Source of the DNA: Eledone cirrhosa
Lineage: Eukaryota
Assembly: GCA_964016885.1 (NCBI GenBank)
Contig: OZ024740.1
Coordinates: 102,238,001 to 102,302,000 of the forward strand
DNA: 64,000 nucleotides
Direction of reading: 5' to 3'
Shown: one piece after another, positions 2,886 to 50,980 of the stretch
Layout: every line of letters starts with the position of its first letter
Numbering within the stretch: the first letter of the stretch is position 1
Position numbers and translations under genes: made by a program
Notes under the pieces: generated by a model
The model's input: only the letters and a program-made list of their open reading frames with translations
Databases searched by the model: none
Told to the model about the DNA's origin: nothing

Positions 2886-3090
2886 ATACTTTGGGAGGGT
2901 CATGTTGCCAATAAGAAACACACGCACCAGTTGCTTTCACTTCAATTTAATTTAATATATATTTATAAATTTACAAATTTATAAATTTATAAATTTCTGG
3001 TTGGTTTATATATTAAATTAAATTGAAGTGAAAGCAACTGGTGCGTGTGTTTCTTATTGGCAACATGACCCTCCCAAAGTATAACAATAT
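2878..3090. repeat. Perfect ~84-bp inverted repeat next to (TA)n
   Basis: 2878-2961 is the reverse complement of 3007-3090. Confidence 0.9.
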
Positions 3091-5430: not shown

Positions 5431-6052
5431 ATAGGTAAAACTTCGATTTATACCTATTCTTGTCGATTTGTCTTTTGGATCGACTCCCTCCCCCCCCCCC
5501 TCTCTCTCCATTTGGTTGTTTTCGGTCTTGTCACACGTGTCATAAAACCCTTTTGGATTAACTCCCTTTCCCTTCTCCTCCCTCTTTCTCTGTCCTTCTT
5601 GCTCACCCCCTCTCACTTCCAGATCCTCCATCTTTCTCTCTCTCCCCTCATTTTACTGAGATCGCCACGGAAAAACCTTGCTCCGCTGTTATCACTGCTA
5701 ATGGGCTTATACCCATCAGCGTACTATAACTTATTCCACTTTCTCTTCGGTTACTTTACATACATGTGCCATTGTCCTGTGTCCCAACTTATATCAGTAT
5801 GTTTACTTTTTCCTCTTTTCCTTTTTTTCTTCTTCCTCTCTCTTCAATATTACTTCTTTCCCTCATGGCCTTTTGATGAATAAAAGGCCATGGGTGCACT
5901 ACAGATCGATCTTCCGTTTTAAGCACCGAAACATCTAAGATCTGTAGTAAACAGCTGATGAAGAGATACTTTTCTTCTCTTGTTTACGTCCCGTTTACCT
6001 TCTAACCCATCGTTTTCAGTAACAACACAGCCTAACTCTTCACCTGTAATTT
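5431..6052 (+). mobile_element. Non-coding, (TA)n-flanked PLE-UTR-like insert carrying a permuted hammerhead
   Basis: Bounded by (TA)n, pyrimidine-rich, same layout as 28812-29302; PLE origin is inferred. Confidence 0.5.
5859..5966 (+). ncRNA. Non-circularly permuted hammerhead-like RNA, copy 1 (partly degenerate)
   Basis: GAAA 5928-5931 precedes CUGAUGA 5955-5961. Helices: 5898-5907/5939-5948, 5893-5897/5923-5927, 5864-5874/5882-5892, 5908-5912/5931-5935 (1 mismatch), 5914-5919/5949-5954 (1 mismatch). Confidence 0.65.
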
Positions 6053-6065
6053 TATATATATATAT

Positions 6066-6213
6066 AGAATTTTGAACACCTGCATTGGACCTTCACAATA
6101 ATCCTTGTTGTAAATATATTCTGTCACTGATTTACAAATTATATTTGGAAGTAAGCATATAGCGTTGGGTGCTTAAACGAATTGCATCATTATTCACTGA
6201 TTTTTATAGTATA

Positions 6214-6270
<57 letters not shown>

Positions 6271-6642
6271 TTAATATAAAAATTGTTTCTACTTTTGGCA
6301 CAAGGCCAGCAATTACCCAGTGCATTACTGGTACTTTATTTCATCGACCCCGTGAGGATGAAAGGCAAAGTTAACCTCGGCGGGATTTGAACTCAGAATG
6401 GCAAGAGACGTAACTCTATGCGTCAAAGCATGGCGTCCGACCCTCTACCGATACTGCCAATCCACAAAAATGTTGACTAATCAGGATTGAGTATGCAACA
6501 CTCCAATCAGTGAATAATGATGCAATTTGTCTTAAGCACCCAACGCCATATGCTTTCTTCTAAATATAATTTATAAATCAGTGACAGAATATATTTACAA
6601 CAAGGATTATTGTGAAGGTCCAATGCAGGTGTTCAAAATTCT
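6066..6642. repeat. ~137-bp imperfect inverted repeat enclosing (TA)n and a SINE
   Basis: 6066-6202 is reverse-complementary to 6505-6642 with several mismatches. Confidence 0.9.
6281..6465 (-). mobile_element. tRNA-derived SINE (family A)
   Basis: Pol III A box TGGCAGTATCGG and B box GAGTTCAAATCC on the minus strand; central GCCTTTCATCC..GGGGTCGAT.AAATAAAGTACC block; multiple copies in window. Confidence 0.85.
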
Positions 6643-15309: not shown

Positions 15310-15343
<34 letters not shown>

Positions 15344-16296
15344 GGAGAAAGTATGATCCCGATGGCAGAGCTCAACCCATTTCGACGGCTATTTCTGAAC
15401 TAAAGTAGGAGTTTTTTTAGTCTGGTAAATAAATAGCCAAACTTTTCAAGAGGTACTTCCTTATATGGGAAGATTGTAGTTGTCAAGAAGATTGGTCAAA
15501 ATTTGTAGCAGACACAGAAAAGTCTATCATGGCAGTGGGTGCGGCTGAACTTGCCTGTAGAACAATAAGGCAGTGGGTAGAGCTGGTCAAGCATTGAAGG
15601 TGAAATCTAAGGAATGTGTATGAAAGTAAGCCAGAGGAGGTAGGCGAAAAAAGGTTTCTTTAGAAAAAAGGAGGAGGGACGTTATAGAATTGGTAAATCA
15701 AATGGGATTAGGGGACAATGAAAAAATATAATAAAAAAAATATAATAAAAAATGAGAGAAAGATATATCAGAATGTAAGATTGGAAAGTGAGAAGTGAAA
15801 TAAAACAGAAACTAAGGAGTCTAACACAGCTGCTACATTTAGTTGGTTCTGCTTTTTCGGCCAATGCTATAAAATGAGTTGCTAGATGAGAATTATTGAA
15901 AATTTAGAATTGGGTATTAAAAATTAATACCACATCTCTGGGGTCTAACACAGCTGCTATGAATAGTTAGTATAGTAATCGGTCAATGCTATCTATAAGT
16001 TACTGGGGTGGGGGTACTGAGGCTAAAGAGGCCCGATGGGCTGCCTCAGGGTAGGCGAAAGGGGAAAAACAAAGAAACGAACGAGGAAGAAGATCGGTGG
16101 TGGAAAGAAGTGATAGGAGGAGACAAAGGGAAGAGGAAAACATAGAGGAAAAGAAAAGAGGTACATCTACCTATATAAGTTGGGGCTTTCCCTATCTTAT
16201 TCGGCAAGTGGGGTGTTTCAGCCCTTGTCTACCCACCCGGATCATTAGGGGGTTTGAGGGTGAGGTAAGTCTTCCGCAATCTGTGTTTGCATGCAG

Positions 16297-17055
16297 TTAC
16301 CAGTCGTCTTTTTTGTTTAGGAGTTGATCCTTCGTAAACAGCATTTGTAATGTTTCCCCCGAGCATAAGTTACACAAACGGCATCCTCCCGTGTAAGAGT
16401 TAGCTCTGGACAGTAAGCTCCAAGTAAGATGGTAAGTTATATTATTATCTTGGAGGTCCCAGATTTGGCCCGAAAGTGTGGTGGCATGTCGCCGGACCGG
16501 GTTTCGGAAAGTATGTCGGTGTTGATGGAGCCGGGTCTTAAAGTCACAAGCAGTTAATCCTATATAAGCTTTGTTGGAGGTGTCCATCCTCATGTTACAC
16601 TGGTAGATCACGTTACATTCTCGGCATCTGTTGTTGAGGGGGCACGTAGATCTATTAGGGCAGTTACACCTCCTGGTCAGCTCTCCACTAATTTCTAGGT
16701 TGTTTCTTCCATAGGGGTTAAGTTTTTTGTTGTTTGAGGAGTCGATGTTTTGTGCGAAGTTAGGTGTGGTGCTGTAGGATAGCTTGATAGTGTTTTTGTT
16801 GATTATGTTGTGGTTGCGGTGTTGTGGTGGAAAGTGTTTTTTGAGGAGCCTAAAGAAGATTTTCCCGATAGGTGTTGCCACCTCAGCATTGTGGGGAGGA
16901 TTGAACCATGCTACGTGGCATGAGCGGCGTCGTCGCCTGCTGGTTCCGCCAAGGGAAGCTGGATAAAAGGATATTTTCTTCCGGAAGCCACTCCGCTTGA
17001 GAGCCTGGTTGTAATGAGGTGCATGTTCGTTGAATATCTGCTCATTAGCGGACAA
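16297..17055 (-). pseudogene. PLE linker + GIY-YIG endonuclease
   Basis: WFNPP, IKLSYS, VIY/YIG motifs and Cys cluster. Confidence 0.9.
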
Positions 17056-17208
17056 ATGAAATATGCAGAGGGAGATGTTTTTAACCAGAATATTGATGTT
17101 TCTAGGATGGTTAGAACGGCAGTGGATGTAGTGCAGGTTGTCGTTTGGTTTCCTGTATGGGTAGTACAGATCATTTTCTAGGTTGAGGGTAACTTCCAGG
17201 AAATTTAC

Positions 17209-18021
17209 TCAGGTTAGGGACGTTTGTAGGGTGATTTTAAATCCCCAGTCCCGGAAAAAGTTGATAAGTTGTTTACGGACTCGGTCTGTATTAGTGGGGT
17301 TGTACCCTTTGAGGGTAAGGAGCCCATCATCTCGGTACAATCCACCGCTGAATGCGGGAAACATTTCGGTGAGTTTAAATAGTAGCAATAATCCTGTAAA
17401 ATCGGTGACCTCAGCCGAATCGGTCGCACCCATGCTGACGTCGAAAGGGGAGTCGGGAGCTCTCTTTATCCACTTGGAGTTGTCGAAAAGTAGGACTGTT
17501 TTCCTGGTGTGGAAAATGAAATTTCTTTCCTGGTCGGTGATGGGCGCGAGTGTTTCAGCAAAGTCCAAGGCGGCCGTAAGGAGTGGTAAGGTAATAGATG
17601 CATAGTAACTCTCTATGTCAAACTGGATGAATTTTGTGTCCCGTTTGTCCTCAATATTCCTGAACCATGAGATTACTTCCTGGGTGCTAACCCATAGGCT
17701 AAGTCTCGCATTTTGCTTAACTTTTGGTATAACGCGGTCTAGGATATTTTCGCTGATTCTCCCACTGTCCGACTTCGTCGAGTTTATAAGCCTGATGGAT
17801 GGTTTGCGGTCGAAGTCGGATTTGTGGTCCTTCAGTGTGAAGTAGGGAGTCCATGGGTCGAGGGGTTCAGTGCGGTCTGCAACCCCGAGGCTAGAGGTAA
17901 TTTGTTGTCCCTCTAGATTTATGACCTCCATAATTGAGTGGTTAGCCTTATTATAGGTGGAGTTTAGGCTGCTCGTGATCAGTGTGTAGTATCTGTCCGG
18001 GTTGACGAAATAGAGGTTTCC
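17209..18021 (-). pseudogene. PLE reverse transcriptase domain
   Basis: ORF 17209-18081 (its N-terminus is microsatellite); premature stop followed by in-frame VNFLEVTLNL. Confidence 0.9.
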
Positions 18022-18113
18022 GTGTGTGTGTGTATGTGTATGTGTATGTATATATACGTGTATGTATGTATATATATACATGTGTGTGTGTATGTGTATG
18101 TATATATACGTGT

Positions 18114-19443
18114 ATCATCATCATCATCATCATCTTTTGACGTCCATATTCCACGCTTGCATGGGTTTGGACGGGAGTTTTCCCACTTGAGGCAAGAGTG
18201 GTTGTCTTGCTCGCATAGGACTGTCTGGCGGGTTTTCTACGGCTGGATGCCCTTCCTAACACCAACCACATTTACAGTGTGGAACTGGGAGGTTTTTACC
18301 GTGTTTCCTACACGGCCACATTACAGCGTGAACTGTGTGTTTTTTTTTGTCGTGACACCTACACGATCTCATTTGTTTCGGCCTGGATGTTGTGGTACCA
18401 ACATAACTTTACATTGGAAGGGGCGGTGTGGATGCGGTGGGGGTAGTGGGACGGGGGTATATTTTGTTAGAGGTGCCTACTGACTGTAGTAGGTTTTACT
18501 TTGTATTTAGGTCAGGCGGGTCTTCTCTATTACTGTGTACCGCCAAAGATCTCGGTCCAGTGACATTGTCTTGGAGAGGTGTAAGTGTGTGAGGTCGGAA
18601 TTTATCAAGTCGTCCCAGGTTTTTCTGGGTCTGCCTACTCCGTGGCTACCGTCTATTTTTATTGCCCTGCACTTTTTTATACAGCTGTCGTCTTTCATGC
18701 ACATCACGTGACCATACCAACGTAGCCTTCTCTCAAGTAAACATCTGATCCCTCTTATTTCTAATTTTTCCCTTAGTTCGTTAATGCTTTGCCGTTCACG
18801 TATATTACTATTACACATCCAGCGGAGCATGCAAGCTTCGTTCCTCTCTAGTCTGCGTATATCCTCTGCACACAATGCCCAGGTCTCACTGCCATACAAC
18901 ATTGCTGTTCGTATGCAGGCATCATACAACCTGCCTTTCATTTTTAGGGAGAACCCTTTAGCAGCTAATAGTGGTATAAGCTCTCTGAACTTTTTCCATC
19001 CAATTCTGACTCTAGCTACTGTACTTTCAGAGCACCCTCCCCCACTGCTGATTTTGTCACCCAGGTAACGGAAGCTGTCCACTATTTTTATAGAACCCTC
19101 TGTGCAATTGAAAGAGCTAGTATTCTGTGGGCACTTGCTGCTACTTATTGCACCAGAGCACCGGCCACATGTAAAATCTATGTTCTTAGTTAGCTTGCCT
19201 GTGATCCCACTACATCTTTTATGCACCCATATTTTGCATTTGGGACATAAAATGGAGTTTCTACCTACTCCTTTCCTACACACTTAGCATGGCCATTTCC
19301 CGGATGGGACTGGCGCCCTATTTTCGTTCCTACAAACTAGAACTTTAGTCTTAGACAGGTTAATTTTAAGGCCTTTTGATTCTAGGCCGTGCTTCCATGT
19401 TTGGAATTTCTTCTCTAGTTCGGCCATTGATTCAGCTATGAGC
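18114..19443 (-). mobile_element. 5'-truncated RTE LINE
   Basis: ORF 18507-19283 with zinc finger, FRYLG, GSETW, LRWYGH; (GAT)n tail; near-identical to 35442-36706. Confidence 0.95.
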
Positions 19444-21420: not shown

Positions 21421-21476
21421 CCCTTGCAAGCAGGGAAAAGCGGACGTAAAATGATGATGATGATGATGATGATGAT
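21421..21476 (+). mobile_element. Minimal RTE 3' terminus
   Basis: CCCTTGCAAGCAGGGAAAAGCGGACGTAAAA(TGA)n embedded in (TA)n. Confidence 0.8.
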
Positions 21477-21500
21477 ATATATATATATATATTTATATAT

Positions 21501-23728
21501 GATAGAAAATTCAAGCATGTTTTACAACGTGAGGACCAGAAACAGGAGGTATTCAAGATTGCGAGGCAGTGTGTCAGAGATAGTTGTGATGTCATTGGAG
21601 AGAAGTGTATCCGGAATGATAAAGGTGAGCTTGCCCTCACAAGTGCTGAGAAGAAAGATGCATGGAAGAGTCATTATGATAGATTACTAAATGAGGAGAA
21701 TGCATGGGAAGAAGAGACCCTACCCCACGTAGACCCTATAGAGGGACCAGCAGTACAAGTCAGCGGCAGCGTAGTAAGTAAGGCAATCAGAGATATGAAG
21801 ATAGGGAAGGCAACCGGTCCATCGGGTATAGCTGCCGAGATGCTGAAGGCATCTGGGTCTGTAGGTCACACTATAACCACACGTATCGTTAACCAGGTAA
21901 TACTAGAGGGGGCCATACCAAAAGATTGGTGCAGTAGCATCATTGTCAACTGCTACAAAGGTAAAGGCGATGCACTAGATAGAGGAAACTATAGAGGTAT
22001 AAAGTTGATGGACCAGGTCATGAAAGTAACAGAAAGAGTTATAGCACAGCTGATTAGGGACCGGGTGAATATAGACGAGATGCAATTTGGGTTTGTTCCA
22101 GGGAAAGGCACCACTGATGCGCTCTTCCTTGTGAGGCAATTACAGGAAAAGTACCTAGCTAAAAGTAAGCCACTCTACTTGGCATTTGTCGACCTTGAGA
22201 AAGCCTTTGACAGAGTTCCACGTGCAGTAATCTGGTGGGCTCTTAGAAAACTAGGAGTAGATGAATGGCTTGTGAAAGCGGTACAAGCCATGTATAGGGG
22301 AGCAGTCAGCAAAGTTAGGATTGGCAATGAGTATAGCGAGGAATTTAGCGTACAGGTTGGGGTCCACCAGGGCTCTGTTCTTAGCCCTCTCCTGTTCATC
22401 ATAGTCCTGCAGGCAATAACGGAGGAGTTTAAGACCGGATGCCCATGGGAACTCCTGTATGCTGATGACCTCGCACTCATAGCTGAATCTATGGTAGAAC
22501 TAGAGAATAAATTCCAAACCTGGAAGCAGGGACTAGAGAGAAAGGGCCTCAAAGTCAACATGACAAAGACTAAGGTCCTTATAAGTAGACGAGAAAACAG
22601 AACCCAGATCCCCTCAGGGAAATGGCCTTGCTCAGTATGTAGGAAAGGTGTAGGTAGGAACTCCATTCTTTGCCCCAAATGCAAACAATGGGTACACAAG
22701 AGATGTAGCGGGATCTCAGGAAGCTTAATTAAGAATGTAGGATTCACATGCAGCAGCTGTGCTGAAACAGCAAGCAAACAGCCACAGGAAACAAGTACCA
22801 CCAATCTCTGGGAGGGCCCTGTAGAAACAGTAGACAGCTTCTGCTACCTAGGTGACCGAATTAGCAACGGAGGTGGGTGCTCAGAAAGTACAATAACTAG
22901 GGTAAGAACGGGATGGAAGAAGTTTAGGGAACTACTACCACTGCTAGCTGCAAAAGGCTTCTCCCTCAGAATGAAAGGCAGACTGTATGATGCGTGTATC
23001 CGAACAGCGATGTTGCATGGTAGTGAGACCTGGGCGCTGAAGGTGGAAGACTTACGTAGATTAGAGAGAAACGAAGCCTGCATGCTCCGATGGATGTGTA
23101 ACAGTAATATACGTGAACGACAAAGCATAAATGAATTGAGAGAGAGACTGAGCATAAGAGGAATCAAATGCTGCGTGCAGGAGAGGCGGTTACGCTGGTA
23201 TGGACATGTGATGCGTATGAAGGATGACAGCTGCATAAAAAGGTGCAGAGCACTAGAAGTTGATGGAAACCGCGGAGTGGGGAGACCCAAGATGACTTGG
23301 GATGAGGTGATAAAAGCCGACCTTACCCAACTACACCTCTCAAAGTCAATGACACACGACCGTGACTTCTGGCGTCACGCAGTAATACAGGGTACCCGAC
23401 CTCCCATGGGTACATGCTGAAGCATATAAACAATATGCCCCCCCCCCCCCCACCGCAAGGTGGTCGTGGAGGTGCCACGGCAAAAAAGCACCCAGCCCAC
23501 ACTGTAAAGTGGACGTGTAGGCGCCACGAAAAAGCACCCAGCACTCACTGTAAATGAGGTTGGTGTTAGGAAGGGCATCCAGCTGTAGAAATCAAGCCAG
23601 ATCAGTTCCTGTATGAGCAAGGCATGGTCAGCCGACCAGACACTGCCCACAACAGGACAACCCGTCTAACCCATGCTAGCGTGGAAGAACGGACGTAAAA
23701 CGGTGATGATGATGATGATGATGATGAT
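21501..23728 (+). mobile_element. Young 5'-truncated RTE LINE
   Basis: Uninterrupted reading frame 21501-23420, 3'UTR, (GAT)n tail, (TA)n on both sides. Confidence 0.97.
21795..23420 (+). CDS. Non-LTR (RTE clade) reverse transcriptase with inserted PHD-type zinc finger
   Basis: KATGPSGI, NYRGIKL, QFGF, DLEKAFD, GVHQGSVLSP, YADD, YLG, GSETW, LRWYGH, GRP motifs; C4HC3 at 22629-22760. Confidence 0.95.
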   Translation: MKIGKATGPSGIAAEMLKASGSVGHTITTRIVNQVILEGAIPKDWCSSIIVNCYKGKGDALDRGNYRGIKLMDQVMKVTERVIAQLIRDRVNIDEMQFGFVPGKGTTDALFLVRQLQEKYLAKSKPLYLAFVDLEKAFDRVPRAVIWWALRKLGVDEWLVKAVQAMYRGAVSKVRIGNEYSEEFSVQVGVHQGSVLSPLLFIIVLQAITEEFKTGCPWELLYADDLALIAESMVELENKFQTWKQGLERKGLKVNMTKTKVLISRRENRTQIPSGKWPCSVCRKGVGRNSILCPKCKQWVHKRCSGISGSLIKNVGFTCSSCAETASKQPQETSTTNLWEGPVETVDSFCYLGDRISNGGGCSESTITRVRTGWKKFRELLPLLAAKGFSLRMKGRLYDACIRTAMLHGSETWALKVEDLRRLERNEACMLRWMCNSNIRERQSINELRERLSIRGIKCCVQERRLRWYGHVMRMKDDSCIKRCRALEVDGNRGVGRPKMTWDEVIKADLTQLHLSKSMTHDRDFWRHAVIQGTRPPMGTC

Positions 23729-28584: not shown

Positions 28585-28731
28585 CAACATAACTTTGCAT
28601 TGAAGGGGGCGGTGTGGATGGGGTGGGACGGAGGTGTATTTTGTTAGAGATGCCTACTGACTAGTAGGTTTTACTTTGTATTTAGGTAATACAAAGTAAA
28701 ACCTACTAGTCAGTAGGCATCTCTAACAAAA
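28585..28731 (-). mobile_element. RTE 3'UTR fragment ending in a perfect 44-bp fold-back
   Basis: Homologous to 18395-18511; arms 28639-28682 and 28688-28731. Confidence 0.85.
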
Positions 28732-28780
<49 letters not shown>

Positions 28781-28811
28781 GTATATATATATATATATAT
28801 ATATGTGTATA

Positions 28812-29302
28812 TGATAATAAGGACGCTGCGGAGTTGCAAATGGGTTACATATGGAAAAAGTTTGTCCTTCATCAGTGGTCTTCCAACCATCATAGGCATT
28901 TCATCGCTTTAAAGACCATATACCTCCGGTTGGTGCGAGCAACGGTTAAAAAAAGTCGTTGGGACACGTAAATAAAGGGGACGCGAGGGTAAACAAACAA
29001 AATGGTGAAGCAACAGAAAGTGATGAAGAAAGAGACAAGTCCCAGATTTCTATGAATTTAAATTCGGTGAAATCGGGAACAAGAGAATAAAGACCATCAA
29101 ACCTGGTTGAAATGTGAGCAAGGAAGGAATTTCGCACAGGTCTAACGGGAGGAAGAAGGGGTCTAGTCTGCGAATTCAGTAAACATAAGTTCTGTGAAAT
29201 CGTAGACGAGAGAGAGAGAGAGAGAGAGAAAAAAATTCATACCAGCTTGGCCAAGAGTGCGCGAGAAAAGAATTACACACAGGTCAAACGGGAAGAAAGA
29301 GG
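28812..29302 (-). mobile_element. Non-coding, (TA)n-flanked PLE-UTR-like insert carrying a permuted hammerhead
   Basis: CpG-retaining insert between two (TA)n arrays; pyrimidine-rich on the minus strand; same layout as 5431-6052. Confidence 0.5.
28863..28966 (-). ncRNA. Non-circularly permuted hammerhead ribozyme, copy 2 (intact core)
   Basis: Minus strand UGUCC CAACG..CGUUG C UCGC A CCAACC GG AGGUAU A UGGUCUU UAAA GCGA U GAA AUGCCU AUGAU GGUUGG AAGACCA CUGAUGA A GGACA; stem III 6 bp, stem I 7 bp, AUA triplet. Confidence 0.8.
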
Positions 29303-29937
<635 letters not shown>

Positions 29938-31283
29938 CTAGCAGATTTACCCGGCGTTGCCCGGGGTTTGAAATTATGCTAAGAATATACAGCTAGGAAG
30001 TAAAAGAAGAAAATTATTTGTCCCCAACCTGTCAAAATAAGCAGAAGTCTTCAATAAGTAATGCAAACAAATATTTAGTGCAATCTTTGTACACATAAAA
30101 CTATGCTGATAATGAAGGAAATCACTGAACAGGATGTATTTATACAAAGGATTAAAGACAATACACGTTGCAAATCTGTAAAAAAAACAGGCACTTTTGC
30201 TAAAGTACAAAAAGTTGTAATGAAAGCAGTGTTGTATACAAACAAAATAACAATGAGAGTAGAATAAGAGAAAATCTATTCTTTGAGAGCATCCTTTGCT
30301 GTGTATGTTTAAATTGTGAACTTATAATCCAAAATATCCTGGATGACATATTCATTGGTATGTTTTGTAATGAGTAAGGTGAAGTCAAGGCAGAGCTGTA
30401 ATAAGTGTTTTTGTTAACACTAAAGCACTTCAGGACAGACGATATTCTTTGTTTTTCTTTTCGGAACAAACGCAAAGAGATTATCTCTACTGTGAACTGG
30501 TGAGCAGGCAACGTAGAATTGTCCATGCGAAAAGCAAGGTTCATCCAAGTGAATTCCAGCGACGGACAGAGTTTGACCTTGCAACTTGTTTATGGACATC
30601 GCAAAGGCAACACAAAGGGGAAATTGGGTTCGGCGAAAGGAGTAGGTAGTATCCACGCCTGATGTAGTCAGGCTAATTTTTGTTATTATCACATCCTCGC
30701 CTGTTCCACATCCGGATAGAATGGTAGCGTCAATACTAAATGGAGACAGTTTTTTAACCACAAGGCGTCTACTATTGCATAGTTTTGGAGGAGTGATATT
30801 TCTCAGCAAAATAACTGGCGTTCCCTCTTTCAGAACCAATGTATTAGGAGGTAAACCGGCAGGATTTAAAGAATTTAGAAATTCAACTGGATAATTGACC
30901 GCATCCTGTGGATCACATACAGTATCAATAGATATATATATATCCGTGGGCATCCAGGAAGAAGCTGAAGAAGCTGATCGTTAATACAGCTAACCGTGAT
31001 ATTTTTGGGTGCAAGAATGGCTCTTTCGTATAGCCAATCAAGATTCGTATAGTTATCACGCAAGTTCGGGAATACACTCGCCTTGAGATCATCGACAGTT
31101 TCATCTACATTGCTGATGTGATCAATTGCTATGTGTCCATCTGTATCCGGAGGTAGGTTACCATCTCCTATTGTAAGAATGTCTCCAGAAAATGTTGATG
31201 ACAGAGGGTCCCCATGCAATCTTGCACGCATGTTGGTAGTTAGTCTTAATGAGGTCACTTGTCGCCACAATGGCTCTTCAGTA
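29938..31283 (-). mobile_element. Helitron 3' portion
   Basis: Pif1-type helicase C-terminus, subterminal hairpin CCCGGGCAACGCCGGG (29950-29965), terminal CTAG (29938-29941) followed by T. Confidence 0.92.
30420..31270 (-). pseudogene. Helitron Pif1-like helicase C-terminal half (frameshifted)
   Basis: LTTNMR, AILAPKN, YPVEFLNSL, LLRN, RRTQFPL, AMSINKLQGQTL, FSHGQFYVACS, TKNIV motifs. Confidence 0.92.
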
Positions 31284-32812
31284 GGTTAACAATACGTGTG
31301 GTTATAGTGTGACCTACAGACCCAGATGCCTTCAGCATCTCGGCAGCTATACCCGATGGACCGGTTGCCTTCCCCATCTTCATATCTTTGATTGCCTTAC
31401 TTACTACGTTGCTGCTGACTTGTACTGCTGGCCCCTCTATAGGGTCTACTTGGGGTAGGGTCTCTTCTTCCCATGCATTCTCCTCATTTAGTAATCTATC
31501 ATAATGGCTCTTCCATGCATCTTTCTTCTCAGCACTTGTGAGGGCAAGCTCACCTTTATCATTCTGGATACACTTCTCTCCAATTGCATCGCAACTCTCT
31601 CTGACACACTGCCTCGCAATCTTGAACACCTCCTGTTTCTGGTCCTCACGTTGCAAAACATGCTTGAATTTTCTATCCTCTGCTTCCCTCCTAGCTAAGT
31701 ATACTTGTCGCCTAGCTTCCCTCTTGGTCTCTAGGTAATGTACCCTACTCCCCCCGTTCTTCCATTCTTTCCATGCCTGTCTCTTGGCCTTAACTGCCTC
31801 ATCTACCTTATTGTTCCACCACCAAGTCACTCTCCTCCTGCTTGAGGTCTTACTCCAACCACAGACCTCATCCGTCGCCTCCAGTAAGTTATTTTAGGAA
31901 CTCCCAGTTCTCTTCTACATTGAATGTCTCTATCTGTTCTTCTTTACTGTCGTAGGCGTTGAGTAAAATATCTTTAAATCTGTTACTGGTTGAGGTGTCT
32001 TTCAGCTTCCAGATCTTTCTTCTCCAGGTTGGCCTCTTTTTCCAGGTTCATCTAGTTCTGACTGTGAGGTCGCTGACAACTAAGCTATGTTGGGATGTAC
32101 ATTCCTCACTAGAGAAGGCTTTTGTGTTTATGACCGTCCATCTGTCATGCCCTCTGATGAGGATAAAATCTATCTGACTAGAGTGCTCCCCTGATCTATA
32201 GGTGATCAGGTGGTTGTCGGGTTTTTTAAAGTTTGTGTTACATATCAACATGTCATTGGTGTCGCAGAATTCTAGAAGTCTGAATCCTTCCTCATTTCTT
32301 GTGCCAACCCCATGGCCTCCATGTACTCTATTGAAGCCGTCGCAGTGTTTATCTACGTGTCCGTTAAAATCTCCTGCGATGATTAGGAAGTCATTGTCGT
32401 CTGTTAGAGCAGTAGTGTGCATTAGGGACTCGTAAAACCTATCCTTAAGTTCGTCTGGCAGCCCCGATTGGGGTGCGTAAGCTGATATTATTGTGGTAAT
32501 TGTTTTATTCAGGACTAGTCTGAGTTTAATGATTCTTGCATTTACCCTGTACACTGAGATTACTTTATCTACCCACTTGTCAGCTAGTAGTATACCTACA
32601 ACACCCATCCCATCGTCATTTCCCACCCAGAAAAATTTGTAGCACCAACTTTTTCCTACAAAGACTCTAGCAGACTCTCCTCTCCATCTAGTCGCTTGCA
32701 CACAGCATACATCAATTTCCTTTCGCTCTAGCATTTCTACGATTTCTCCTGCTCTTCCTTTCATTGAGCCTACATTGATGGTACCAACTCGGAGTTTGGG
32801 CATTTGTCGACA
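31284..32812 (-). mobile_element. 5' half of RTE LINE (AP endonuclease + linker), 3'-truncated
   Basis: ORFs 32048-32803 and 31255-31830; 31284-31680 is nearly identical to 21501-21897. Confidence 0.93.
32048..32803 (-). pseudogene. Apurinic-like endonuclease domain of RTE
   Basis: GTINV, CVQ(A)TRW (conserved E lost), YAPQ, GDFNGH, QIDFIL, SQH motifs. Confidence 0.9.
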
Positions 32813-35333: not shown

Positions 35334-35383
35334 ATCCTTATATATTTATCTCTTTGGATTTTAGTCTTCAAATTTATTATTAT

Positions 35384-35441
<58 letters not shown>

Positions 35442-35445
<4 letters not shown>

Positions 35446-36706
35446 AAGCACGGCCTAGAGTCAAAAGGACTTAAAATTAACCTGGCTAAGACCAAAGTTC
35501 TAGTTTGTAGGAAAGAAAACAAGGCGGCGGTCCCTTCTGGGAAATGGTCGTGCTCGGTATGTAGGAAAGGCGTAGGTAGAAACTCCATCTTATGTCCTAA
35601 ATGCAAAGTATGGGTGCATAAAAGATGTAGTGGGATCACAGGTAAGCTAACTAAGAACATAGACTTTACATGTGGCCGGTGTTCTGGTGCAATAAGTAGC
35701 AGCAAGTGCTCACAAAATACTAGTTCTTTCAATTGCGCAGAGTGTTCTATAGAAATAGTGGACAGCTTCCGTTACCTGGGCGATAAAATCAGCAGTGGGG
35801 GAGGGTGCTCTGAAAGTACTGTAGCTAGAGTCAGAACTGGTTGGAAAAAGTTCAGAGAGCTTATACCACTATTAGCTGCTAAAGGGTTCTCCCTAAAAAT
35901 GAAAGGCAGGTTGTACGATGCCTGCATACGAACAGCAATGTTGCATGGTAGTGAGACCTGGGCATTGTGTGCAGAGGATATACGCAGACTAGAGAGGAAC
36001 GAAGCTTGCATGCTCCGCTGGATGTGTAACAGTAATATACGTGAACGGCAAAGCATAAACGAACTAAGGAAAAAATTAGAGATAAGAGGGATCAGATGTT
36101 GTTTACTCGAGAGAAGGCTGCGTTGGTATGGACACGTGATGCGCATGAAAGTCGATAGCTGTATTACAAAGTGCAGGGCAATAAAGATAGACGGTAGCCA
36201 CGGAATAGGCAGACCTAGAAAAACATGGGATGAGCTGATAAACTCCGACCTCACACACTTACACCTCTCCAAGACAATGTCACTGGACCGTGACCTTTGG
36301 CGGTACTCAGTAACAGAGAAGACCCGCCTTGCCAGTAGGCATCTCTAACAAACTACACCCCGTCCCGCCACCACCCCCACCCCATCCACACCACCCCGTT
36401 CTATGTAAAGTTATGTTGGTGCCGCGCCATCCAGGCCGAAACAAATGAGATCGTGTCGGTGTCACGACAAAAAAACACACAGTCCACGCTGTAATGTGGC
36501 CGTGTAGGCAACACGGTAAAAACCTCCCAGACCCACACTGTAAATGTGGTTGGTGTTAGGAAGGGCATCCAACTGTAGAAAACCTGCCAGACAGTCCTAT
36601 GCGAGCAAGACAATCACTCTTGCCTCAAGTGGGACTACCCCCGTCCAAACCCATGCAAGCGTGGAACACGGACGTTAAACGTTGATGATGATGATGATGA
36701 TGATGA
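35442..36706 (+). mobile_element. 5'-truncated RTE LINE
   Basis: ORF to 36348 with zinc finger and RT C-terminus; (GAT)n tail; (TA)n both sides. Confidence 0.95.
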
Positions 36707-49654: not shown

Positions 49655-50980
49655 GTACTATCCGTTAGGGTATAATGTGGGGCTGTAATACAGGAAAGTT
49701 TTATGCAATTTGTGTTTACAAGCCGAAATTGCCTCAGATTTTTTGTTTAAGATGTGGTCATTGGCGTAGAGTATTTCCAGGGCTTCAGCAGCGCAAAGAT
49801 CATATGGTCTTTTATTTCCGTTATACGATCTAGCCTTAGCTAGGATCTCCCAGTGTAACTTATAATGGGTGTGGTTGTCTTTTAGACTCCAGATATAAGC
49901 TGAAAGTGACGTCATATTCCTTTTTAAAGGGTTAAGAAAAGAATGGGTGTGCATGTAAAGACGCTGCTTGAATCTATTGGTGGTTAACCCTATATAGGCC
50001 TTACTGGACGTGGGTGTTTTGACCTTACATTTGTAGACAATGTTACTGGAGAGGCATTTCCCGGATAGTGGGCAGTCAACCCGATTCCTACAATTACAGT
50101 ACTAGCTACAGGGTTGCACGTGTTACTACGGCTAGGTAATTTAGCTAAATTTGAAGCAGTGATGTTATGTGCAAGATTAAGAGTCGTAGAGTAGGATATT
50201 TTAATGGTATTTCTATTAAAAATTTAATTATATTTATGTGCTGAGGGGAAATGCTTCTTAATAAGGGAGAGAAAGATCTTAGCTAATGGTGTGGCCACCT
50301 CCATATTATATGGTGGGTTATACCATATAATTCATCGGGATCTATTTTTCATTGGCATATGCTCATACTTAGTATATGCTACCTTATCGACAAATCCACT
50401 CCGAGCAAGAGCTTCATTGTAATATGTGGAATGGTCGGTGAAAATATGCTTGTTAGTAGATAGACAGGAAAGCCTCAAAGAAATGTTTTTTACCAGGTTC
50501 TTGGTTATGCTGGCAGGTTGGTTAGAATGCTTACTTATGTAATTAAGCGTATCATTCAGCTTACTATATGGGTGGTGCAAGCCATTCGACAAATTGAGGG
50601 AATCGTTGAGGTAATTAACGACCGAGAGGTTAGCCTCAACCTGTATGGAGAAGTTGAAGCCTTTAAAGATGGCTGTGAGTTCTTTTCTGAACCTGTCTCA
50701 AGCGCTACATATTAAAATGAGAAAACTCATTGCTAGAACAGCCGTTAAAATAGCTAAATGCTGTCAAAGACAGCGATGGGCAAAAATGCCTCAGTGAACA
50801 GAGACCAGCGACCAGTGGTCAACAGAGAGACAATCCACAAGGTGGGAGATAAGCAGAGGAAATATAGAAAAAATTGAAAGAAGAGGATGACAAGGAGAAG
50901 TGTGCTGACACACAGAAGTGACTGGAAGAAATAAATAAAGGTGATGTACAAGTTTACATACACACATCTTCACCCTTATC
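49655..50980 (-). mobile_element. Second Penelope-like element (RT thumb + GIY-YIG pseudogene, with UTR-like piece upstream)
   Basis: ORFs 50332-50592 (HHPYSK..YISKHSN..YYNEALARSGF) and 49658-49954 (TSLSAYIWSLK..LC..E..ILNKKSE..CKH); NIVYKC/YIGLT readable at 49980-50045. Confidence 0.88.

Follow-up and report, generated by a model that had tools for sequence, protein, structure and literature searches.

Based on helix-by-helix comparison of repeat copies in the genome of Eledone cirrhosa, we propose, at a probability of roughly 0.8, that positions 5859-5966 of the stretch analysed (64,000 nucleotides, hereafter the window) hold a decayed copy of a conserved motif that would act as a self-cleaving hammerhead-type ribozyme of new wiring. 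The motif is a real, conserved hammerhead-core RNA, which departs in one feature from the known type SGC and differs from all circular hammerhead types. The copy at 5859-5966 belongs to a repeat family termed F1, and a second window copy to a young family, F2, as laid out below.

5458..6076, plus strand: F1 unit, 5'-truncated, with a (TA)n run at its end (limits set by homology to other copies)
5859..5863, plus strand: helix a, 5' strand, pairing with 5962-5966, the strand directly 3' of CUGAUGA
5864..5892, plus strand: hairpin h (5864-5874:5882-5892, 11 bp, 7-nt loop), between helices a and b
5893..5897, plus strand: helix b, 5' strand, the stem II equivalent, pairing with 5923-5927 directly 5' of GAAA
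5898..5907, plus strand: helix c, 5' strand, pairing with 5939-5948 (10 bp)
5908..5913, plus strand: stem III strand with U16.1 (5912) and H17 (U5913); C5911 is mismatched, G in 41/53 other F1 copies
5914..5922, plus strand: 3'-side strand of stem I and UAA linker (5920-5922) to helix b; C5915 is mismatched, U in 45/53
5923..5938, plus strand: helix b, 3' strand, GAAA (5928-5931), stem III strand and 3-nt bulge (5936-5938)
5939..5961, plus strand: helix c, 3' strand, stem I strand (5949-5954) and CUGAUGA (5955-5961)
5962..5966, plus strand: helix a, 3' strand; A5964 is mismatched, G in 45/53
28801..29303, minus strand: F2 unit, 5'-truncated; period about 615 nt, copies 97-99% alike
28863..28966, minus strand: the same architecture in F2, with stems I, III, b and c fully paired, a k-turn-like hinge and a predicted cut after 28919

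The six helices, the core and the mismatches at 5911, 5915 and 5964 that an earlier note had described were all verified by a direct sequence check and a pair table. The mismatches are C.C in stem III (5908-5912:5931-5935, at 5911/5932), C.A in stem I (5914-5919:5949-5954, at 5915/5953) and C.A in helix a (5861/5964). In standard hammerhead numbering, H17 is U5913, G12 is 5928 and C3 is 5955, and the cut is predicted after 5913. Two marks of the hammerhead class, the CUGAnGA/GAAA/UH core and stems I and III abutting it, are present, and the blocks follow each other as S, G, C (cut site, GAAA, CUGAUGA). F1 also carries a GUU triplet, which we count against the hammerhead reading. Rfam returned no hammerhead match at 5859-5966 or at 28863-28966, and in the minimum-energy fold of 5859-5966 predicted with a pseudoknot-free model, h and c form and stems I and III do not.

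The order and spacing are common to both window copies, as previously observed, with 23 nt from GAAA to CUGA in each. The core and a UAA(A)GC linker are shared as well, but they are not the only shared parts, as had been thought, because the spacing and the bulge-plus-GAU stretch 3' of stem III (UAUGAU in F2 and most F1 copies, UAAGAU at 5859-5966) recur too. Aligned to each other, the window copies are identical in 62 of 121 columns; none of 1000 shuffles scored as high, and 10 of 1000 did once the core had been taken out. The earlier description of the copy at 5859-5966 as independent is not supported. Together with the shared hinge and spacing, these scores make common descent likelier than separate origin, and the two copies are probably distant homologues.

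Stem II and the surrounding junction set the wiring. Across 12 copies, helix b pairs in 40 of 48 cells, whereas the two registers of a direct stem II reach 16 of 48 and 14 of 48; direct pairing from the strand 3' of CUGAUGA (positions 2-5, or with one extra base) was rejected as lying at chance level, one copy (L067) being an exception with 4/5 pairs in the direct register. Positions 10.1 and 11.1 pair in 10/12 copies, as G-C, A-U or U-A, and are A.C in F1; beyond this pair, stem II runs only through helix b. In F1 the 10.1 and 11.1 bases pair outward, U5863 with A5962 in 50/53 copies and G5893 with C5927, or as G-U, in 50/53. The strand 3' of CUGAUGA pairs with the 5'-most segment (helix a), while a adjoins hairpin h and h adjoins b, and the behaviour of 10.1-11.1 suggests a four-way junction able to migrate by one pair. 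In family F7 (L108, L086, L116, L118, L119), helices a and b are contiguous by eye and hairpin h is apparently absent, a three-way junction that is possibly a simpler state.

Between stem III and helix c, a 3-nt bulge is followed by G and A in 8/8 sequence types. The first of these positions faces its partner as G.A in 7/8 and the second as A.G in 4/8; both are found in the F2 window copy, F2b, F3 and F6, and A-U stands at the second position in F4, F5 and F7. A k-turn consists of a 3-nt bulge, then G.A and A.G pairs, and by this pattern the hinge is k-turn-like in most families. In F1, 5859-5966 included, the hinge holds Watson-Crick pairs, not G.A. A kink at this point would fit the direct c-III link into hammerhead geometry.

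That the architecture is kept across diverged families, as had been suspected, was borne out with compensatory changes. The covariation set comprises eight equal-length natural copies, one per type and gapless (4 of 12 copies were dropped for length). Helices b, c, III and I with 10.1-11.1 are paired in 92.9% of 184 cells, two-sided changes occur at 18 of 23 pairs, and shuffles matched the observed covariation in 0/500 cases on four of five measures and in 1/500 on the fifth. Pairing falls to 31-48% when the registers are slid. By helix, 97.9% of cells pair in stem I, 92.5% in stem III and 95.8% in helix c, and the CUGAnGA, GAAA and UH core is invariant, in copies selected with the core. This covariation is strong but yields no probability, because the eight copies are related and, like the registers, chosen by the investigators, so that cells are not independent events. 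Helix a pairs at 32/32 across families, a figure that is the best of 36 registers and therefore was not used as a test.

Within F1, 53 distinct other copies span the motif, out of 79 matches, some of them selected by a pattern requiring the core. The core is intact in 47, and b, III and I are also fully paired in 14. Overall the helices are 86-92% paired (helix a 86% of 265 cells, hairpin h 92%), and helix c shows compensatory changes between F1 subfamilies, the pair 5901/5945 being A-U in 36 copies and G-C in 12. Among 31 F1 copies selected by DNA likeness only, 5 of 340 core cells hold a letter other than the commonest one, versus 144 of 2985 cells elsewhere (p 0.002).

The copy at 5859-5966 itself is decayed, in agreement with the earlier view, since the commonest letters of the 53 other copies (G in 41 at 5911, U in 45 at 5915, G in 45 at 5964) restore pairing at all three mismatches. 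The proposed check, that a family consensus should repair them, was run on the F1 copies and gave the pairing letter as the commonest at each. In the 31 copies selected by DNA likeness only, the pairing letter stands at 5911, 5915 and 5964 in 28, 30 and 26 copies, respectively, and a comparison of four contig runs with F1 confirmed the family letters at these positions (letters only). As mismatches in stems III and I adjoin the predicted cut site, this copy is likely slow or dead as a ribozyme.

The units carrying the motif are numerous in the 3.0-Gb source genome, with candidate places in the thousands. F1 gave 1040 first-pass candidates (40 scored), with 187 exact matches to a 3'-half pattern versus 0 for controls, and F2 gave 2051 candidates, with 694 matches to an F2-type pattern versus 0. 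A degenerate core-and-spacing pattern matched at 184 places, and its reversed control at 1; GAAA and CUGA are nearly always 23 nt apart in these matches, and the motif loci examined fall into about nine sequence types. On a four-helix score with a maximum of 19, the window copies reach 17 (F1) and 19 (F2). A score of 16 is reached by 83 of 157 core-pattern matches from this genome, many of the rest being truncated, and by 1 of 115 listed matches from viral contigs, which, among the matches listed, behave as background.

F1 is non-coding, with a unit of ~650 nt, a tandem period mostly of 650-760 nt and a pyrimidine-rich motif strand, the last also found in the F2 and F3 units of about 520-630 nt. 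Unit 3' ends cluster about 50 and 90-100 nt past CUGA, and the longest ATG frames span 57-93 aa. F1 and F2 occur as tandem and inverted copies in (TA)n insertion context without a linked ORF, and the units display the traits of Penelope-like non-autonomous (retrozyme-like) elements, namely tandem and inverted copies, (TA)n targets, an optional tail and no ORF. The layout of Penelope-like elements given in the consulted parts of Craig et al. 2021 (PMC8557442) includes tandem or inverted copies, (TA)n and a tail, and the F1/F2 layout matches it, tail included, as it fits the non-autonomous retrozyme-like units described in the consulted part of 10.64898/2026.07.22.740005.

The closest known relative of the motif is of type SGC. 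The consulted parts of Eckert 2023 (PMC10085705) divide the hammerhead into blocks S, G and C, report the non-circular order SGC from metatranscriptomes, and list six block orders on the assumption that CUGAnGA and stem II are contiguous. There, SGC-1, which is active in vitro, has the strand order III, H, I, linker, II, GAAA, III, c, I, CUGAUGA, U, II, c; its I-II linker is 3 nt long, and one U is added at A9/10.1. Some type-SGC monomers that cleave have c linked directly to III, a link that Eckert et al. flag as hard to reconcile with the crystal structure (PMC10085705). The motif has in common with type SGC the S, G, C order, the ~3-nt linker from stem I to II and a helix tying stems I and II, and with SGC-1 the circular strand order and an insertion tolerated at A9/10.1; by comparison with the SGC-1 oligos, helix c is the equivalent of the stem I-II interaction helix. 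Block C, unbroken in type SGC, is broken here. In type SGC, the stem II and interaction strands lie 3' of CUGAnGA (PMC10085705), whereas here they stand at the 5' end and run on into stem III, and the strand next to CUGAUGA enters an extra helix within a multi-way junction. The motif corresponds to the SGC-1 circle with c linked to III and with its break placed 3' of CUGAUGA, so that the strand following CUGAUGA would not supply stem II. Type SGC comes from spruce and other metatranscriptomes, in contrast to an animal genome with thousands of candidate places, and the parts of PMC10085705 examined make no mention of a k-turn for it, unlike the k-turn-like hinge of most families here. The consulted supplement of Eckert 2023 contains no match to 'Octopus', 'Acropora', 'Eukaryota' or 'Metazoa' (PMC10085705).

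The circular order C, G, S of types I, II and III is not that of the motif. As far as the consulted parts tell, it is that of the type I hammerheads of Penelope-like pseudo-LTRs (Cervera and de la Pena 2014, PMC4209133) and likewise of the non-LTR retrozymes (Li, Clavereau, Pollet 2026, 10.64898/2026.07.22.740005), both with a short stem III. Like the motif units, these have a single motif per unit close to the 3' end, tandem or inverted copies and short non-autonomous units, and their frequent extra nucleotide at 9/10.1 resembles the motif. The canonical Penelope-like elements (PLEs) of the E. cirrhosa genome carry type I hammerheads, whereas F1/F2-type families do not. At A9/10.1, single-base insertions are known and tolerated depending on the base, while A10-to-C/G changes at this step harm a viroid hammerhead, according to the consulted parts of PMC4209133 and PMC3705267 for the former and of PMC3705267 for the latter. 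That a junction at A9/10.1 goes against the contiguity of CUGAnGA and stem II assumed in Eckert 2023 counts against the proposed fold. Neither a whole junction at A9/10.1, the motif's wiring nor permuted hammerheads in Naiads were found in the literature searched outside subscription journals.

Naiads were reported without canonical hammerheads, eight families, including those of Octopus and Euprymna, being marked 'HHR_half_core' (Craig et al. 2021, PMC8557442). This half core shares with the motif CUGAnGA in the 3' UTR, GAAA far off on either side and a preference for (TA)n; the consulted parts of PMC8557442 give no structure for it, and the full structure here would account for the half core. 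File S5 of PMC8557442 was read by eye at 60 of 62 CTGATGA and 14 of 23 CTGACGA places, which passes over motifs broken across lines. The same wiring, with strands in the order a-h-b-c, was found at the 3' end of three Acropora entries, Pomphorhynchus and one further entry, at that of a Beroe entry with a weak stem I, and, with the bulge and a G.A hinge, in two Octopus entries; a Euprymna entry has it in degenerate form. The host range among these Naiad consensus sequences thereby takes in corals, a ctenophore, an acanthocephalan and octopuses, and in several entries 10.1/11.1 are unpairable (C/C, U/C, A/C), like in F1. In the same file, at least four nematode Naiad entries can be read as type CSG, their block C being unbroken, and a horseshoe-crab entry before Naiad-1_Dst may be plain type SGC with long inserts.

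Because the same wiring ends Naiads reported without a canonical hammerhead, the motif is likely their missing ribozyme, and the terminal part of a Naiad-type element is the likely origin of the motif family, a link made through shared RNA wiring as read by eye. Naiads have an ORF, whereas F1 and F2 have none, and the motif loci lack the upstream ORF with N-terminal GIY-YIG that marks a Naiad. No autonomous partner bearing the motif was present among 50 GIY-YIG loci examined (30 + 20), of 150 scored from 10,595 candidates; these 50 have C-terminal endonucleases or no long frame, and canonical type I hammerheads are present in several. Remnants of PLE ORFs in the neighbourhood of motif copies were rejected as partners, not being collinear with them. 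A motif resembling the Octopus Naiad consensus matched the genome 10 times versus 7 for controls, one Naiad reverse transcriptase pattern had 0 matches in the genome, and a second led to old remnants only, with the motif absent. We find it fairly probable that non-circularly permuted hammerheads occur across animal phyla in Naiads and in the non-autonomous elements derived from them, the motif being a seventh wiring beyond the six permutations (entry by a four-way junction at A9/10.1, a k-turn-closed frame and a possible L7Ae/15.5K site) and nematode Naiads the type-CSG form of the same circle.

Several related elements were seen along the way. Loci L306-L316 are old Naiad-type reverse transcriptase remnants (FWIPKLHK motif), 65-85% alike and with many stops; L199, L203, L209, L211 and L206 have canonical type I hammerheads 3' of PLE frames with C-terminal endonucleases; and a frequent repeat with a CUGAUGA...UGAAA core is also present (further loci L086, L120, L205, L212). 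The window holds a PLE with C-terminal GIY-YIG at 15340-18114 (minus strand), whose 3' UTR of ~950 nt is pyrimidine-rich and whose 3' end has 3435 genome candidates. CUGAnGA is absent from this 3' end (15345-15700); a conserved GAAA-capped hairpin with a GC-rich end is found at about 15345-15395, and a stretch of ~85 nt is about 75% like F1 sequence upstream of the motif (low complexity). A second, broken remnant of the same type lies at 49658-50697 (minus strand). Further repeats of the window are LINE copies with reverse transcriptase, PHD finger and endonuclease pieces (21450-23420, 32048-32812, 18507-19283, 35365-36348), a Helitron-like Pif1-type helicase remnant (30420-31285, minus strand), near-perfect MITE-like inverted repeats with sub-threshold Rfam miRNA matches (2899-3069, 28648-28722) and a SINE-like family with five or more window copies (6271-6465, 41234, 43125, 45338, 49020, 52137).

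We propose that the motif would operate as follows. Stems I and III and the core would fold as in any hammerhead, with stem II supplied by the 5'-end strand (helix b) and not by the strand 3' of CUGAUGA. The chain would enter and leave via helix a at A9/10.1, and a, h, b and the core would form a four-way junction there; most families here have one 10.1-11.1 pair at this junction, and in F1 and the published Naiads it would be shifted by one step. Helix c would brace the far ends of stems I and II and join stem III through the 3-nt bulge, whose k-turn-like form in most families may give the sharp bend required by the wiring; the motif would amount to the SGC-1 circle opened at another place. 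Each ~600-nt unit of a tandem transcript would receive one cut (predicted after 5913 in the copy at 5859-5966), which would define the RNA ends for a Penelope-like reverse transcriptase provided in trans, a function modelled on proposals for pseudo-LTR hammerheads and retrozymes.

Insertion 5' ends offer an indirect sign of such cuts, since they should accumulate directly 3' of the site if templates start there. In F1, 7 of 35 ends lie at or just 3' of the predicted cut (within 14 nt), and in F3 10 of 27 lie just 3' of it (34 copies, from which 7 internal ones were removed; (TA)n blurs 7 of the 10 values), where ~2-3% would be expected if ends were uniform. The pile-up in F1 and F3 could instead stem from microhomology to (TA)n or from reverse transcriptase stalling at structure. 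F2 has no such pile-up, with 0 of 28 ends at the predicted cut (37 copies less 9 internal). This lack in the youngest family would agree with a hammerhead descendant that no longer cuts, its fold being kept as a signal at which the element's reverse transcriptase binds or initiates, as would the position of the motif near the element's 3' end and the consulted report of an Anolis PLE inserting in vitro without hammerhead cleavage, with no reads ending at the cut site (PMC11167929). We judge such a loss of catalysis improbable, as the core drift expected from it is not seen and the catalytic bases and UH rule are invariant across families whose helices have turned over.

Somewhat less improbable, but still unlikely, is a hammerhead active only as a dimer or after refolding, in which S and G of one unit would combine with C of its neighbour and a and h would form a switch. 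Covariation cannot separate dimer from monomer, because the pairings are identical in both. The units are often tandem, a monomer would be strained where zero-nucleotide links connect the far ends of I, b and c, and metazoan PLE hammerheads are reported, in the consulted parts of PMC4209133 and PMC11167929, to be active as dimers or protein-assisted. The conserved hinge and the fixed spacings of 23 nt and 20 nt fit a rigid monomer, the 5-bp stem III is stable and no short palindrome, and there are cleaving type-SGC monomers that possess a direct c-III link (PMC10085705). Finally, repeat copies are not independent and short helices arise randomly, as would suit chance pairing in a low-complexity repeat spread by transposition. 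The pattern matches versus controls, the four-helix scores, the helix b counts and the recurrence of the wiring in Naiads of distant phyla (by eye, PMC8557442 File S5) oppose this, and the cross-family covariation refutes it, leaving it a negligible chance.

In conclusion, non-circular hammerhead permutations were previously known only from metatranscriptomes, and the motif described here has hundreds to thousands of copies in the genome of an animal. It breaks the assumption, inherent in the list of six orders, that CUGAnGA and stem II are inseparable, and provides a candidate structure for the Naiad 'half core'. The k-turn-like hinge suggests how an interaction helix may join stem III directly. 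Descriptor-based ribozyme searches of animal genomes would miss the whole set.
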